Shown: in pieces, positions 3,010 to 53,295 of the stretch
How positions within the stretch are numbered: position 1 is the stretch's first letter
Layout of the letters: each line of letters starts with the position of its first letter
Virus record (IMG/VR): IMGVR_UViG_3300010356_000549
Span: 1 to 64,000 of that record
From: a virus
Lineage: Duplodnaviria; Caudoviricetes
Length of the DNA stretch: 64,000 bases
Direction: 5' to 3' (one strand)
Position numbers and translations under genes: made by a program
Notes under the pieces: generated by a model
Seen by the model: only the letters and a program-made list of their open reading frames with translations
Told to the model about the DNA's origin: nothing
Database searches by the model: none

Positions 3010-3027
3010 TTTGCACGATCTTGCAAA
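3010..3027 (+). repeat. 18-bp quasi-palindrome TTTGCACGATCTTGCAAA, copy 1 of 11
   Basis: exact copy, immediately past the stop of 3029..3373. Confidence 0.95.
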
Positions 3028-10321: not shown

Positions 10322-11053
10322 ATGACATCGCGATTATTGAGTATCCTTGTGACCCTGCCCGTGATTTGCACGATCTTGCAAATCCGGTCGACTTCGGCGA
10401 CCGAGAGCACCTTCACGGCTGCCAAGAATATCCTGCGGACAGCGATTCCTGTTAAGCAGGAAGGCGGCTTCCTGCGGAGCGGGTGGATCAAAGAAGGGCT
10501 ATCGTCCCTCATGGGTGTGGAGGGGACCGTCGTTCAAGTGGAGCTGCCCGCGACAGAGCCAGAGCCAGCGCCAGTAACGACCTCAGGCGACGAGGTTCAG
10601 GAGTTGCCCGAAGGCACCAGCAATTTTTACCGGGACTCCCTGTTTCCCCTACCCGTAGATGATGAGGCGATACGGCAGCCCGAGAAAGTGCCCACCGGGG
10701 CACCCGTTCAGCTCATTGTTATTGACCTATCTGAGGAAAAGCTGGAGGCTTTCAGTATAGAAGGGGAGAGCCTGATGACCGCCAAAATCAAGGCATCCCG
10801 CTTTGGTATCGGGAGCGAGCAGGGGAGCAAAAAGACGCCCATAGGCGAGTGGACCCTGAATAAGGAGCCCAAGCACTCCTACGGTCCCACGTATCGGCTT
10901 TCCGGGGAGCAGGGCAAGGAAAGGGGCATCCTGATTCACCCCGGCAACCTAGGGCACGGCTCTCGCGGCTGTATTCATGTGAGTTGGGATAAGATCAAGG
11001 CACTTTACTCAATCACAGCCTCAAAAGGCACCGAGCTTAGGATTCAAGAATGA
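10322..11053 (+). CDS. exported L,D-transpeptidase (YkuD-domain) protein
   Basis: N-terminal signal; IVIDLSEEKLEAF, KTPIGEW, GILIHPG..GSRGCIHV (catalytic His/Cys); promoter TTGACA-N16-TAGTAT 6 nt upstream. Confidence 0.75.
   Translation: MTSRLLSILVTLPVICTILQIRSTSATESTFTAAKNILRTAIPVKQEGGFLRSGWIKEGLSSLMGVEGTVVQVELPATEPEPAPVTTSGDEVQELPEGTSNFYRDSLFPLPVDDEAIRQPEKVPTGAPVQLIVIDLSEEKLEAFSIEGESLMTAKIKASRFGIGSEQGSKKTPIGEWTLNKEPKHSYGPTYRLSGEQGKERGILIHPGNLGHGSRGCIHVSWDKIKALYSITASKGTELRIQE
10365..10382 (+). repeat. 18-bp quasi-palindrome, copy 4 (inside the signal-peptide codons)
   Basis: exact copy. Confidence 0.95.
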
Positions 11054-11406
11054 ATATATGGAGGAACATAGTCGCCTTTTCTCTCCTTTCCCTAACCGGG
11101 TGTCGGGAGAGTGACGAGAGGGTGCTTTCGAAGCGTCCCAGCTTCACTCCCCTAGCTATTGGGGCGGAGGAGCCGGGGGATGCGGAGGGGCTTTCTCCCG
11201 GCATCCTACGCATCGACATAAATTGGTCCCCCGAACCTCCGGTTGATCTGGAGGAAGAACCCACTTGGCTGTTTGACAATCCTTATGTGGAGTCCCCCGA
11301 GCCAATCAAGCCTAAGCCTAAGGCCAAGGCCAAGGCCAAGGCACCCGCCAAGGCCACACCTAAAAAATCCACTATAAAAAAGGCGGCTCCCGCTTGCAAA
11401 ACATGA
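11050..11406 (+). CDS. lipoprotein with a Lys/Ala/Pro-rich tail
   Basis: lipobox LTG-C; KPKPKAKAKAKAPAK repeat. Confidence 0.65.
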   Translation: MNIWRNIVAFSLLSLTGCRESDERVLSKRPSFTPLAIGAEEPGDAEGLSPGILRIDINWSPEPPVDLEEEPTWLFDNPYVESPEPIKPKPKAKAKAKAPAKATPKKSTIKKAAPACKT

Positions 11407-11461
11407 CGATGACTTTATCCTTGCGGTCGCAAGGTAAATACAACCAAGCAATAGAACAAAA

Positions 11462-12208
11462 ATGAAGAATAAAATTATAACGTTGGCGGCCATATTGGCC
11501 GGAGTAGGGTTAAGCATGATGATGGTAGGGTGTGATGGACCTCATCCGGTCCTTCCGGTTCCAGGGACCGTGACGGCTGCGGAGGCAGAGACTACCTACG
11601 ATGACACCTATGTTTACGAACACAAGCTCACTGAGCCAATCGTGGTTGAAGACGGGGAGACATACGATGGATTGATTGACGGGAGGATGACCCGACTCAG
11701 CCGGGCCGATGCCGACCCTATTGCCATCAAAAACATTCGAGGGGAGCTACTACACAACCAAGCTGGGATTGTCATGGAGTTAAAGCCGGGAGCCATAGTC
11801 AAGAACGTCATTATTGCTGAGAATTGCCAGATTGATGCAGTCCTAGCGGGGCGGATGAATATTTACCTTGAAAACGTGGAGTGGGAAGATTGTGCCGTGA
11901 ATGTCATTACCAAAGATTCACCGGGTTACCTATCATTGACCAATTGCCATGGACAAGCCAGTATTACCTATGCACCTAACATTAGTGAGGCCGGGCCGGG
12001 AAACGGATCTCAGGAAATAGCGGAAGCCAAGCAGAGCAAGCCGAGCGATGACCTTAGCATCAGCAATGCACCGGATTACATGGGAAAGCGTTCTAAGTCA
12101 GCCTCATCCGGGGTATCCGCACTCAAGCCCCCCAAATGGGTGCCGGGCAAGCCGTTCCAAAACTGGAAGGCTCAAATTGCTTACCATAAGGCCAAGCAAG
12201 CCTCCTAG
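11462..12208 (+). CDS. lipoprotein with a pectate-lyase family 3-like beta-helix
   Basis: lipobox VG-C; PIVVEDGETYDG, MELKPGAIVKNVII, LENVEWED. Confidence 0.6.
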   Translation: MKNKIITLAAILAGVGLSMMMVGCDGPHPVLPVPGTVTAAEAETTYDDTYVYEHKLTEPIVVEDGETYDGLIDGRMTRLSRADADPIAIKNIRGELLHNQAGIVMELKPGAIVKNVIIAENCQIDAVLAGRMNIYLENVEWEDCAVNVITKDSPGYLSLTNCHGQASITYAPNISEAGPGNGSQEIAEAKQSKPSDDLSISNAPDYMGKRSKSASSGVSALKPPKWVPGKPFQNWKAQIAYHKAKQAS

Positions 12209-49342: not shown

Positions 49343-49439
49343 CATTATGAAAAAGCGTAGGATGATACGTCAAACAAAGAGGCAGTCGCGGCCTAAAGTG
49401 GGCCGGGACGTGTTAAAAATATTACTCAATAAAGCAATT

Positions 49440-49811
49440 ATGATAGAGAGAGTAAAGTCAAGGAAACTGTGGGTGGCGGTCTTATCGGCGGCGCTGGTCG
49501 CCTTCGGAGACGGCATGGGCCTAAGTCAAGTGACCCAGTGGATCATCGGGATGATCGGCGGGCTCTACACCGTGGGGCAAGGTATTGCCGATGGTGGAAA
49601 GCAGGGGGAACTCCAGGCGCTGGCAGCAGAGCAGCGCCAAATGCAACGTGCGGCTGCGGCCTCCCGGAAGCAGATGGAGGCAGAGGCTAGGCAGGCGGCT
49701 CAATGGGGGCTACAACCTCAAGGGCAGTGGAACGGTTACCCGCCACAAGGGAACGTGCAAAATACCCAAGGTGTGCTGACTCCTAACAACCAGCAAAAAC
49801 CTCAACTATAA
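49440..49811 (+). CDS. holin-like two-TM protein with a Gln-rich tail
   Basis: KSRKLWVAV..ALVAF, IIGMIGGLYTVGQGIAD. Confidence 0.6.
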   Translation: MIERVKSRKLWVAVLSAALVAFGDGMGLSQVTQWIIGMIGGLYTVGQGIADGGKQGELQALAAEQRQMQRAAAASRKQMEAEARQAAQWGLQPQGQWNGYPPQGNVQNTQGVLTPNNQQKPQL

Positions 49812-49906
49812 GCAATTAATTGGGTCGCTAACAAGAGTGCCCTTTTGAATAGAGTCCTCCCCCCGCCGTGGGGGGGGCTTTTTACTAAGATAAAACCAAC
49901 AAAAAT

Positions 49907-50125
49907 ATGAAAAACATCATCATGCTATTGATCATCGCTTTCGCCCTATTTGGGGGTGTTCAAGCGGTTGAAGCTCGGCCTTCTAATCAGCCCTGCCGCT
50001 GTGCGGTGGACGGTTGTAAGAAGTGCCCGAAGTGCGGCGGCTGCCGCTGCGGGGCGAAGGATTGCAAGTGTAAGAAATGCACCTGCAAAAAGGCTCCCCC
50101 ATTTAGGAAAAGGGGCCAGCGCTAA
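49907..50125 (+). CDS. secreted Cys-rich metallothionein-like peptide
   Basis: signal peptide, then 11 Cys within residues 30-60. Confidence 0.65.
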   Translation: MKNIIMLLIIAFALFGGVQAVEARPSNQPCRCAVDGCKKCPKCGGCRCGAKDCKCKKCTCKKAPPFRKRGQR

Positions 50126-50216: not shown

Positions 50217-50234
50217 TTTGCACGATCTTGCAAA
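50217..50234 (+). repeat. 18-bp quasi-palindrome, copy 9, between the promoter and the endolysin ATG
   Basis: exact copy; TTGCAT(50177-50182)-N16-TACATT(50199-50204) upstream. Confidence 0.95.
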
Positions 50235-50242
50235 TTACTATT

Positions 50243-50704
50243 ATGGACGAACGATCAGCCCGAATCATAAGCACCTTACACCCCAAAGCGCAGCCCGTAT
50301 TTACGCGGCTCCTTGAAGCGGGAAAGACCATCGCCCTACTGCATGGGGCTGATTACGTCGCAATCTCCGGGCATCGGAGTTACGCAGAGCAAACGGAGCT
50401 GTATGCCAAGGGCCGGACCAAGCCGGGCCGGATCGTCACAAACGCTCGGGCGGGCTACAGCAACCACAACTTTGGGATCGCGGTGGATTTTGGGGTGTTC
50501 AAGGATGGCAAATATCTGGACAGCGCCAAGCCTGCCCTTGCCAACAAGATCCACAAGCAAGTCGCGGAATGGGCGGCTAAACATGAGTGGATCATCGAGT
50601 GGGGGGGCAACTGGAAATCCTTTCAAGACATACCCCACTTCCAGCTCAAAGGCCACACCCTGGCCCAACTTCGCACGCTGGTAAAGGAGGGGAAATGGAG
50701 CTAG
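50243..50704 (+). CDS. M15-family (L-Ala-D-Glu peptidase-like) endolysin
   Basis: SGHRSYAEQTELYAKGRT, TNARAGYSNHNFGIAVD, WGGNW..FQDIPHFQ. Confidence 0.92.
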   Translation: MDERSARIISTLHPKAQPVFTRLLEAGKTIALLHGADYVAISGHRSYAEQTELYAKGRTKPGRIVTNARAGYSNHNFGIAVDFGVFKDGKYLDSAKPALANKIHKQVAEWAAKHEWIIEWGGNWKSFQDIPHFQLKGHTLAQLRTLVKEGKWS

Positions 50705-51060
50705 GTAAAGTGACCCAATGGATTGACGAGCTAATCGCTCAAACCAAAATGCCCCCGCCTATGGAAGCCGACCCGCGCATTTTTTGTTACATGCTCGGGA
50801 TTATCGCTTTCGGGGGTGTATCCGCGCTGGCGGCCCTTTTCTCCTCCGAGGCTTCCTTGACACCCCGTGTAGTGGTGGCGTATATGCTGTCGGGGCTTAT
50901 CTCCTCAGGCGTTGTGGTGCTGCTACTGGTGGAAAGGTATGGTCTGTCGTGGTTTCTGGTAGGCATTGCCATCCTCGCGGGGTACAAAGCGGTGGACTTT
51001 TTGGCGGCTGGAAGTCTGTATGTAAGGAAACTAATCGGAAAGTTCGTAAAGCATGAGTAA
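50695..51060 (+). CDS. holin (three predicted TM segments)
   Basis: hydrophobic segments, basic C-terminus, overlaps the endolysin stop. Confidence 0.65.
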   Translation: MELGKVTQWIDELIAQTKMPPPMEADPRIFCYMLGIIAFGGVSALAALFSSEASLTPRVVVAYMLSGLISSGVVVLLLVERYGLSWFLVGIAILAGYKAVDFLAAGSLYVRKLIGKFVKHE

Positions 51061-51520
51061 GGCAAGGTTAAGGGTCAGCGAATTACTACACGTATTATTG
51101 CTCGTTTTGGTAGGGGCAAGCCTGGGGGGCTACATCTTCGAGAAGGGTCACCGGAAGAGTGCCCACGAACGCATGGAATTGGCCTTTCACTCCGGGCGGG
51201 CCGGGTGGTGGGTGTTCAACGTGAGGAAGAACCAACTAGAATGGTCAGACGGCATGTTTGATTTATACCAGCAGAAGCCCGAGTCGTGGGAGCCGACTTA
51301 TGCCGGGTTTATAAATTCTGTGCATCCTGAGGACCGGGTGGAGGTCACGTCCCTACTGGAGGAATGCTACACCAAGGGCACGCCTTACCGGGTGGGCTTT
51401 CGTATTGTATGGCCGGACGGTCAGGTTCACAAAATACTGGCATCAGGGGAACGCTCGCACGATGGCCGATACATCGTTGGAATCAACATCGAGGACTCGA
51501 TGCTAAGGGTTTACGAGTAA
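51053..51520 (+). CDS. membrane-anchored PAS (PAS_3-like) domain protein
   Basis: TM at residues 10-28; GWWVFNV..LEWSD..DLY, SVHPEDR, YRVGFRIVWPDGQVHKI. Confidence 0.8.
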   Translation: MSKARLRVSELLHVLLLVLVGASLGGYIFEKGHRKSAHERMELAFHSGRAGWWVFNVRKNQLEWSDGMFDLYQQKPESWEPTYAGFINSVHPEDRVEVTSLLEECYTKGTPYRVGFRIVWPDGQVHKILASGERSHDGRYIVGINIEDSMLRVYE

Positions 51521-51636
51521 AGGGGCGATAACTTGCTGGCGATCAAGGGATAGTATTTTTGTTAAAAAAAGACTTTGCAAAGGCTTTAAAAGGGTTTACT
51601 CTTTAGTCGTCCACAGTAGAGGGACAATAAACGACA

Positions 51637-53295
51637 ATGAGTAAACAAAAGTATCAGAAGGCTCTAAGCCTTTTATCAGACAGCGGCATCGGTGTAATCC
51701 TCACCAGAACCCGCGAACCACTACGGGCTATCTCAGCTCTCCGGGAACTCTCCCAAACCAATCACCTTCCGTTCTGTCAGTGGGACGTTATGCGGGGCTG
51801 GCGCAGTTACGGTCCCAACGACCGGGAAGACACTCCACCTAAGGCGGAGAAAATCACCGACCCTTTTATGGCCTTGAAGGCCATCGAGGATATCGACAAT
51901 GCAGGGATGAACCGTAAAGAATCGGGCCTATTTGTGATGAGCGCTATTCATCATTGGATGGGCAAACACCCCGGCATAACGGAGTGCTTGCGTCACTACG
52001 TCAAAACATTCGCTGAGAAGGCCGACCTTCGACTTGTGCTGGTCTGCCCGGAGTCGACGATGCTACCGGAGGAGCTGCAACATGATATCCCAATCGTGGA
52101 CTTCGACCTGCCCGACCATGAGGAAATCAAAAGCATTTACGAATACATCCTGGCCTCGTCAACGCTGGAGGGCGAGGATGTTCCTGAGCTTTACGGGGAC
52201 GCGGAAACTGAGGCACTAATCTCATCCGCCGGGGGCATGACCACCATGCAGGCGGAGGCGGCCTATTCGCTGGCCATCGTCAAAAACCGTCCAGTCGACC
52301 GGGAGTGGCATGACATTCCCTTCTCAGCCTTCAACGGCTCCGTGCTGGACTCCAAAACTGAGGCTGTCAAACAGTCGGAAGTGCTGGAGCTACTGGAACC
52401 CGTCGAAATGTCTGACGTGGGCGGTCTGGAGGTTCTCAAGGAGTGGATCACCGATGCAGCCCAAATGTTCTCCAAAGAGGCAAGGGATTTTGGGGCGGAT
52501 ATGCCGGACGGTATTGCGGCAGTCGGACCTCCGGGCACCGGGAAAACTCTTGTGGCCAAGGCTATCGCCACCACGCTGGGGCAGCCCTTAGTCAAGTTTG
52601 ACGTATCCAAGTGCTTCGGCAAATACGTCGGGGAGAGCGAAAGCAAGGTGCGGTCTGCCCTTAAGCAGCTTGAGGCCATGGGCCGGGTGGTCGTGCTTTT
52701 TGATGAGGTGGATAAGTCACTTGGCGGCTCTCACCAAGGCGGTGGGGATAACGGGGTTTCCCAAAGGGTGCTGGGGTCTATCCTGACCTTCCTTCAAGAA
52801 ACGTCTGCCCCTATCTTTCCAGTGTTCACCGCTAACCGGACCAACTCCCTGCCACCGGAATTGCTCAGGAAGGGGCGGCTTGATGAGGTCTTTGCGGTGA
52901 TGCCTCCCAACCGTATCGAGCGCGAGGCCATCCTGAAAATCCACCTGCGCAAGCGCAAGCAAACCGGGAAGATCAAAGATTTGGGCGTGGCAGTAGCGGC
53001 CAGCCGGGGTTACGTTTCCGCAGAGCTGGAGGCGGCAGTCAAAGAGGCGGTGAAGCACAGCTTCTGCCACGGCGTGGAGATTACCGGGCAACTGATAGCG
53101 GAGCAGCTTCTCAACATGGTCCCAATCTCTGTGGCCTTTGCCGAAGACTTTGCAGCGATGCAGGAGTGGGCAGCGAACAACGCTCGCCAAGCCTCTGCCC
53201 CTTGCGATGAGGACGCCAATGAGTCTATACCGGAGCCTAAGCGGGCGCGGAGGCGGGCTATTCAGGGTGACAACAACATCAACTCGAAAAACTAG
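51637..53295 (+). CDS. ycf46: Ycf46-like AAA+ ATPase
   Basis: VGGLEVLKEWI, GPPGTGKT, VLFDEVDK, TANRTNSLPPELLRKGRLDE; promoter TTGCAA-N16-TACTCT at 51575-51602. Confidence 0.85.
   Translation: MSKQKYQKALSLLSDSGIGVILTRTREPLRAISALRELSQTNHLPFCQWDVMRGWRSYGPNDREDTPPKAEKITDPFMALKAIEDIDNAGMNRKESGLFVMSAIHHWMGKHPGITECLRHYVKTFAEKADLRLVLVCPESTMLPEELQHDIPIVDFDLPDHEEIKSIYEYILASSTLEGEDVPELYGDAETEALISSAGGMTTMQAEAAYSLAIVKNRPVDREWHDIPFSAFNGSVLDSKTEAVKQSEVLELLEPVEMSDVGGLEVLKEWITDAAQMFSKEARDFGADMPDGIAAVGPPGTGKTLVAKAIATTLGQPLVKFDVSKCFGKYVGESESKVRSALKQLEAMGRVVVLFDEVDKSLGGSHQGGGDNGVSQRVLGSILTFLQETSAPIFPVFTANRTNSLPPELLRKGRLDEVFAVMPPNRIEREAILKIHLRKRKQTGKIKDLGVAVAASRGYVSAELEAAVKEAVKHSFCHGVEITGQLIAEQLLNMVPISVAFAEDFAAMQEWAANNARQASAPCDEDANESIPEPKRARRRAIQGDNNINSKN

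Follow-up and report, generated by a model that had tools for sequence, protein, structure and literature searches.

A membrane-tethered PAS protein encoded directly behind a putative phage holin: a candidate regulator of lysis timing

The stretch of DNA analyzed here (hereafter the window) covers positions 1 to 64,000 of a 75,106-bp IMG/VR virus record (IMGVR_UViG_3300010356_000549; CheckV completeness 86%), which comes from an uncultured activated-sludge phage of roughly 75 kb. Within the window, three genes of a lysis cassette overlap in series on the plus strand, encoding a soluble endolysin (50243..50704), a putative holin with three predicted transmembrane (TM) segments (50695..51060) and a small protein, termed TM-PAS in this study (51053..51520), in which one N-terminal TM helix is followed by a PAS_3 domain. 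This arrangement had been described in an initial annotation made from the letters alone, and it was recovered in full, with overlaps of 10 and 8 nucleotides (nt) between the successive genes. The absence of any kinase, cyclase or DNA-binding output from TM-PAS, which the same annotation had claimed, also held, only PAS_3 being found.

The endolysin (153 amino acids, aa) is an M15/VanY-type zinc peptidase. It matches Peptidase_M15_4 (E 1.4e-14) and VanY (E 1.6e-11) in Pfam as well as PHROG endolysin families at E 2e-28 to 1e-24, and the zinc-ligand motifs H-x6-D and a C-terminal PHF are readable in its sequence. No TM, hydrophobic or export-signal segment was seen in a hydrophobicity check of the 153-aa protein. 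Being devoid of an export signal, the endolysin should need a hole-forming holin.

The gene that follows is preceded by a strong Shine-Dalgarno sequence (AAGGAGG, 5 nt before the ATG), overlaps the endolysin stop by 10 nt and encodes 121 aa with three predicted TM segments (residues ~29-47, 59-79 and 84-105) and a basic C-terminal tail. Small size, at least one TM segment, a charged C-terminus and an endolysin neighbour, which were checked for membership among the holins, are all present. Taken alone, the 121-aa protein gave no significant match in Pfam or PHROG, phrog_6384 being reached only at E 0.077. A relative from an ENA metagenome, P0156, shares 46% identity with it (E 9e-22) and matches PHROG holin family 6384 at E 1.4e-7 with nearly the whole profile covered; family 6384 is listed as a match for all five members of the holin family. 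The Pfam family Phage_holin_3_3 (LydA) was matched by one member only, at E 0.06. Neighbours of the protein in the ESM Atlas were LydA-type and superfamily III clusters (features 0.88, structure TM-score 0.72), which is considered a lead only. From the link through P0156, the size, the number of TM segments, the basic tail and the position, it is plausible that this protein is a holin, the homology link being a transitive one.

The start of the TM-PAS gene overlaps the holin stop by 8 nt (ATGAGTAA), and its product of 155 aa can be divided into few parts. The hydrophobic helix (residues 11-29; 51083..51139, plus strand) is preceded by a basic N-tail, followed by a basic linker, and terminates in a G-Y-I-F motif that is invariant in the family. 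The PAS_3 domain including its N-cap helix occupies residues 38-145 (51164..51487, plus strand), with the Pfam core match at 51236-51454. The protein scored 46.6 bits against PAS_3 (PF08447; cut-off 25.6, E 4.1e-12), and 47.7 bits were obtained in a six-frame search of the genome. Neither Pfam nor PHROG revealed a domain beyond PAS_3, and the protein stops just past it.

An AlphaFold (AF2) model built from a five-sequence alignment has a long helix at the N-terminus and a typical PAS alpha/beta fold, at a mean predicted local distance difference test score (pLDDT) of 69. The modelled strands (residues 52-56, 61-64, 112-119, 125-134 and 140-145), together with helices, make up the five-stranded PAS fold. 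In Foldseek, the model was matched with probability 1.0 to PAS structures, including 3nja, 3mr0 (from a Burkholderia kinase) and FixL. Among solved structures, the nearest relative comes from a Chromobacterium GGDEF protein, as its PAS domain (3nja; E 1e-12, HMMER/Foldseek), and the likeness to FixL covers residues 22-97, that is, the heme-free PAS-A and not the heme PAS-B. Structure comparison in the ESM Atlas, again a lead only, indicated that the TM helix leads straight into the PAS N-cap as it does in bacterial membrane sensors. Such sensors (MASE1- or PAS-histidine kinases and PAS-GGDEF proteins, for instance 3nja and 3mr0) likewise place PAS_3 directly after the last TM helix, but they carry kinase, cyclase or other output domains, whereas the phage protein ends right after PAS.

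The slot occupied by TM-PAS was described in the initial annotation as the one where spanins usually sit, and for the position this is correct. Like Rz-type i-spanins (lambda Rz, as generally known), TM-PAS has an N-terminal anchor and a length of about 150 aa (155 here), and its gene lies behind a holin/endolysin pair; furthermore, no lipobox gene or other spanin candidate is found near the cassette. For the function it is not: that TM-PAS substitutes for a spanin and takes part in outer-membrane disruption is highly improbable and largely refuted. Its soluble part is a PAS alpha/beta fold instead of a coiled coil, and there is no lipoprotein to serve as o-spanin partner, since no lipobox open reading frame (ORF) lies in or beside 51053-51520 and the only ones in the genome are at 11050 and 11462. 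An o-spanin embedded in the PAS gene was also considered and rejected, the sole internal ORF in the +1 frame (51364-51531) being without signal peptide or lipobox.

The holin and TM-PAS genes were found together beyond the window. TM-PAS directly follows the holin in all five other contigs that show both genes (L002, L003, the P0155 contig, L004 and L006), among which L004 holds the most divergent pair, with 46% (holin) and 32% (PAS) protein identity to the window. Thus the neighbourhood survey, in which homologs unlinked to lysis genes would have told against the initial annotation, showed that every relative with a visible upstream gene follows the same holin. The conservation is confined to the pair. 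In blastn, the similarity between the window and L002 or L003 spans only from 50744, inside the holin gene, to the PAS stop (51517-51520), and for the genes on either side of the pair in L002 and L004 the whole window genome offers no counterpart. The upstream fragment in L002 had appeared YkuD-like by eye; this was discarded, as neither Pfam nor PDB supported it and its sole match was phrog_3000, whose function is not annotated. Purifying selection acts on both genes: among relatives of roughly 70-80% identity, synonymous sites are saturated (proportion of synonymous differences, pS, 0.75-0.90), and the corresponding nonsynonymous proportion (pN) stays at 0.11-0.19 in the PAS gene and 0.05-0.16 in that of the holin. 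Judged from these comparisons, holin and TM-PAS appear to behave as one functional unit of two genes that travels from one lysis context to another.

Such strict co-inheritance, together with translational coupling, implies matched expression of the two proteins. It would also be expected if TM-PAS were an obligate structural subunit of a two-component holin, in which the three-TM protein and TM-PAS form the lesion jointly and the PAS domain, as PAS domains are frequent dimerisation modules, merely oligomerises and senses nothing. This possibility is considered quite unlikely. The three-TM protein resembles holins that act alone (PHROG 6384, LydA/lambda-type superfamily III), and the order and distance of TM-PAS and holin vary among the phage lineages described below, which fits an add-on regulator better than a fixed subunit.

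Close relatives of TM-PAS are very few among 5.8 billion clustered proteins. An exhaustive HMMER search returned one other stand-alone PAS cluster among the top hits, the remainder being bacterial multi-PAS sensors of 24-34% identity. In tblastn against 50,697 deposited phage genomes, neither the PAS protein (for the PAS domain, even at E 10) nor the L004 holin nor the gene upstream in L002 gave a match, and back-translated peptide scans of IMG/VR (with single proteins and with the PAS alignment) and of GTDB genomes (with the holin alignment) recovered no relatives. A metagenome scan with back-translated peptides recovered only the same phage (L006) and L004. A short PAS match on an 83-kb contig, P0162, was set aside as it lies in a bacterial sensor-kinase neighbourhood and is irrelevant.

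In favour of a target in the host, TM-PAS belongs to the same PAS family as the PAS repeats of bacterial multi-PAS sensors. PAS domains commonly work through PAS-PAS contacts, and small accessory genes often lodge beside lysis genes. TM-PAS could accordingly be an accessory (moron-type) membrane protein that rides the late lysis transcript and disturbs host signalling by forming PAS heterodimers with a host kinase or diguanylate cyclase, or has some other host-directed role. We regard this as unlikely. Translation of the gene is coupled to that of the holin, the two genes stay together while both flanks change, and at 24-34% identity the nearest bacterial PAS domains give no sign of recent capture from a target protein. 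Specifically, nothing was found in support of the decoy for a host histidine kinase that had been put forward in the initial annotation.

IMG/VR was also surveyed with a DNA pattern for the PAS_3 signature HP(D/E)D ... (F/Y)R ... DG. The pattern identified 50 distinct loci, in which 26 ORFs match the PAS profile; 11 of the 26 are at most 300 aa long, and at least nine of these 11 have an N-terminal hydrophobic helix. All five survey records that were searched again passed the Pfam cut-off for PAS_3. In five further phage lineages, TM-PAS_3 proteins that are only distantly related to that of the window, or unrelated to it, adjoin holin, endolysin or spanin genes. For instance, L037 encodes a holin followed by a TM-PAS-PAS protein of 293 aa that shares the LGYI juxtamembrane motif. 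Its holin matches phrog_175 (E 0.0027) and aligns with the window holin family in hhalign (probability 74%, E 2.7e-5), and L037 is a distant member of the window's holin/TM-PAS module.

The other cases show a second type of protein, the 'linker' family (L059, corresponding to G001:26500-33600, L026, L036, L023, L035, L029, L039, L043, L047 and L058), with roughly 195-235 aa arranged as an acidic N-tail, one TM helix, a linker of about 90 aa and PAS_3. The linker contains a conserved PNGGxSxRDxIxRIE-like motif (phrog_9869, no annotated function). In G001, a complete genome of 97.8 kb, the gene order is TM-linker-PAS, 2-TM protein, endolysin of the M15 type (phrog_465, E 1e-37), HNH endonuclease, Rz-like spanin and lipoprotein. 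The HNH endonuclease gene (4601-5050 of L059, minus strand; phrog_3377, E 4e-50) interrupts the endolysin/spanin order there. G005, a complete genome of 57 kb, encodes in this order TM-linker-PAS, a Phage_lysozyme protein with an N-terminal hydrophobic segment (E 1e-34), and Rz-like and Rz1-like proteins. L036 shows a TM protein, then an Amidase_2 endolysin (E 2e-14) and then TM-linker-PAS, and in L023 tail genes are followed by an 83-aa 2-TM protein and TM-linker-PAS. The contexts of the family are thus lysis cassettes in some lineages; in others, TM-linker-PAS lies between ribonucleotide reductase (RNR) and Mom-like genes.

These loci bear on each of the alternatives above. That G001 and G005 possess TM-PAS plus separate Rz/Rz1-like pairs argues against a spanin substitute, as does the charge pattern of the 'linker' lineages. 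Their N-tail is acidic and the flank behind the TM helix strongly basic, a pattern that puts PAS on the cytoplasmic side, where PAS_3 domains usually lie. In favour of a two-component holin, TM-PAS of G005 stands directly before the lysozyme with no small multi-TM gene between them, and could itself be holin-like. For the accessory role, a related architecture occurs outside lysis, beside the RNR and Mom genes of the L035 group; against it, TM-PAS proteins were recruited independently beside holin or endolysin genes in several lineages. The latter follows from the scores against the window PAS domain, which were 17-22 bits for the 'linker' PAS domains, 40 bits for L037 and 60-68 bits for PAS domains of bacterial sensors. 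The 'linker' domains are therefore farther from the window PAS than bacterial sensor PAS domains are, indicating that the link between TM-PAS and lysis genes arose more than once. The recurrence beside lysis genes in other lineages raises the confidence in a lysis role, although the association is not universal.

Taking these lines together, we tentatively propose that TM-PAS is a holin-associated regulator of lysis timing, analogous in position to LydB of phage P1. In P1, the antiholin LydB is encoded directly behind the holin LydA (PMC9025707); LydB lacks a predicted TM domain as well as homologs whose function is known (PMC9025707). The two cases resemble each other in that the regulator gene lies immediately 3' of the holin and is co-expressed with it; the nearest named clusters of the window holin are LydA-type (Phage_holin_3_3, superfamily III), again at the level of a lead, and the mechanism of LydB is also not known. 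They differ in that the window protein is membrane-anchored and carries PAS_3, a sequence relation to LydB being neither found nor expected, and in that the P1 endolysin is unlinked and of the signal-arrest-release (SAR) type, whereas the window endolysin is adjacent and soluble. An inhibitory, antiholin-like effect on the holin is considered more likely than an activating one. The genetic linkage and co-expression characteristic of antiholins are found in TM-PAS, as seen from the 8-nt overlap and the retention of the pair in relatives and, distantly, in L037.

The proposed sequence of events is as follows. The holin would build up in the inner membrane, and the soluble endolysin would depend on it to reach the cell wall. 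TM-PAS, presumably made in step with the holin via translational coupling and tethered to the same membrane by its one helix, may associate with the holin and shift the time of triggering, most likely as a delay. The PAS domain could act as a ligand- or state-dependent switch, or as a protein-contact surface, that conditions the association between TM-PAS and the holin. An antiholin-like sensor had been suggested in the initial annotation; of this, the association with lysis and the positional analogy were borne out, while binding, inhibition and sensing are predictions.

Other known systems offer partial parallels. The T4 holin T with its antiholin RI (and RIII) is similar in concept, as a separate small membrane-tethered protein has a soluble domain that could set holin triggering by a signal; if the N-terminus of TM-PAS is inside, the orientation would also be that of RI, N-in with the soluble domain outside. 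Homology is lacking, however, and the T4 holin has one TM segment and a large periplasmic domain in contrast to the three-TM window holin. The anchor of RI is a releasable SAR domain, whereas the TM-PAS helix has ~5 of 19 residues (about 26%) as Gly, Ala or Ser and a Leu/Val-rich core; searches of Pfam and PHROG gave PAS_3 only and no RI homology. In phage lambda (S105/S107), a small three-TM holin with a basic C-terminus likewise serves a soluble endolysin, but the lambda antiholin is made from the same gene via a second start, whereas the window has a separate gene after the holin. A conserved dual-start motif was not seen in the holin family, and the L004 holin has one N-terminal Met. We know of no antiholin with a PAS domain. 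Full-text searches of the available literature on PAS together with holin, antiholin or lysis cassette gave no description of the arrangement, only an unrelated iGEM paper being found. TM-PAS may well be an undescribed lysis-timing regulator.

Several points weigh against this proposal. It is only from its fold that TM-PAS is presumed to sense: the PAS domain shows none of the marks of a cofactor (a FixL proximal His, a LOV Cys or homology to cofactor-binding PAS domains), and 3nja has no assigned ligand, although a ligand of some other kind is conceivable. The regulation of the holin is read from sequence; a complex prediction for holin and TM-PAS scored 0.05 against a mark of 0.32 and is used as evidence neither way. 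The topology is ambiguous from the flanking charges. The N-tail in the window family has 2-3 conserved basic residues, which argue for N-in with PAS outside, like RI or Rz, and 3-4 Lys/Arg residues also follow the helix; with both flanks basic, the two sides of the membrane are about equally probable for the PAS domain. On this would depend which part of the holin the PAS domain could meet: the N-terminal segment if PAS is periplasmic, the basic tail and first loop if it is cytoplasmic. The L035 group, six related contigs with genes for the alpha and beta subunits of ribonucleotide reductase, TM-linker-PAS and a Mom-like protein (E 3e-45) and without lysis context, shows that phage TM-PAS proteins are not always lysis-linked. 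Moreover, the window family is tiny, with ~6 environmental contigs, so that co-occurrence statistics are weak and partly reflect common descent. Lastly, from the PAS ATG onward contig L001 shares 98.9% identity with the window, and its 18 upstream nt (L001 1-18 vs window 51035-51052) are wholly different and terminate another ORF with an ATGA overlap. This joint may be a contig-end artefact, or it may reflect recombination exactly at the holin/PAS boundary, in which case the PAS gene would be able to follow another gene.

Lysis timing decides the burst size and fitness of a phage. To our knowledge, the lysis regulators that are understood are few (P1 LydB, T4 RI/RIII and the dual start of lambda S107); outside lysis inhibition in T4, a dedicated sensor domain that reads a signal is not known for any of them. 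A PAS domain attached to a holin would, if the proposal is true, provide a simple testable case of lysis that depends on environment or physiology, and the three-gene cassette of ~1.3 kb is small enough to be transferred to a laboratory host and assayed directly. The arrangement turns up again in phages that are unrelated, two of them complete genomes with full sets of holin, endolysin and spanin, which suggests a general strategy and not an oddity. That several unrelated lineages have independently wired a membrane-tethered PAS domain to their holins, so that bursting is gated by a small molecule, redox or energy state, is possible but doubtful. Were it true, the window cassette would be the most compact form of a signal-dependent lysis clock made from a bacterial sensor module without enzymatic output. 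A PAS ligand, if identified, would give a natural ligand-gated lysis switch.

An 18-bp near-palindrome (TTTGCACGATCTTGCAAA; 50217..50234, no strand assigned) lies in the leader of the cassette, 8 nt before the endolysin ATG. Its arms TTTGCA and TGCAAA enclose the centre CGATCT with a GATC core. The presence of this site in the leader had been pointed out in the initial annotation and is correct, but the site is not specific to the cassette. The window contains 11 exact-type copies (at 3010, 5097, 8859, 10365, 21658, 28554, 31326, 40449, 50217, 56850 and 58448) compared with 2.6 expected, a number that no shuffle reached, and three further copies at genome positions 64694, 68269 and 71834 bring the total to 14. 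They occur in both orientations, with CGATCT or its complement AGATCG around the GATC core. Every copy is located 0-58 nt upstream of a gene or operon start, including those of portal, tail, lysis and DNA-polymerase (PolA) genes, indicating a leader element rather than a lysis-specific operator. It is probably a promoter or operator element of the phage's own. Several genes downstream of the copies have no Shine-Dalgarno sequence.

Three other identities of the 18-bp site were tried and rejected. As a sigma-70 promoter, the sole hexamer pairing would make the -10 coincide with the endolysin ATG, and a consistent -10 is missing from the other copies. As a sigma-54-like promoter, judged by eye, the site is spaced too tightly by one base and has TG in place of GG, and its copies stand in both orientations. 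As an RNA hairpin, the site folds at -4.5 kcal/mol, no better than shuffled sequence.

Upstream of the cassette, an intrinsic-terminator-like hairpin (49857..49877, plus strand) with a 9-bp G+C-rich stem followed by a T run is strong and closes the preceding operon. It is the likely 5' limit of the transcription unit of the lysis genes. The unit probably begins with the gene of a secreted 72-aa peptide (49907..50125, plus strand), followed by endolysin, holin and, as the last gene, TM-PAS. The peptide has a hydrophobic N-terminal signal and a Cys- and Lys-rich core, with a weak, below-cut-off match to metallothionein-like proteins (E 0.0019). It is conceivable, as speculation, that it acts as a cationic third lysis component active on the outer membrane, no spanin candidate being nearby. 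Located 5' of the terminator, the 154-aa protein encoded at 49347-49811 has a very basic N-terminus, 1-2 hydrophobic segments and a Gln-rich coiled-coil-like tail. A holin family of PHROG is matched only weakly (phrog_9987, E 0.17), and the protein may be another membrane protein of holin-like or regulatory type.

In the wider genome, nearly all long ORFs are on the plus strand, and the terminase shares at most 33% identity with that of any deposited phage. A sequencing-run search returned three activated-sludge DNA runs that contain the stretch around the cassette, and no RNA run holding it was listed. In the early region (10322-12208), a YkuD-like catalytic motif was read by eye near the C-terminus of one protein, behind whose gene lie those of two lipoproteins, both with good lipoboxes (11050-11406 and 11462-12208); these form an envelope module that has no relation to the lysis cassette. 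Directly 3' of the cassette, beyond an intergenic region rich in A/T, an AAA+ ATPase gene (51637-53295; phrog_8638, E 2e-139) opens an operon of its own. In its 3' part this gene shows 72% DNA identity to Rhizobium phage L338C, the sole nucleotide-level link of this genome to a cultured phage.

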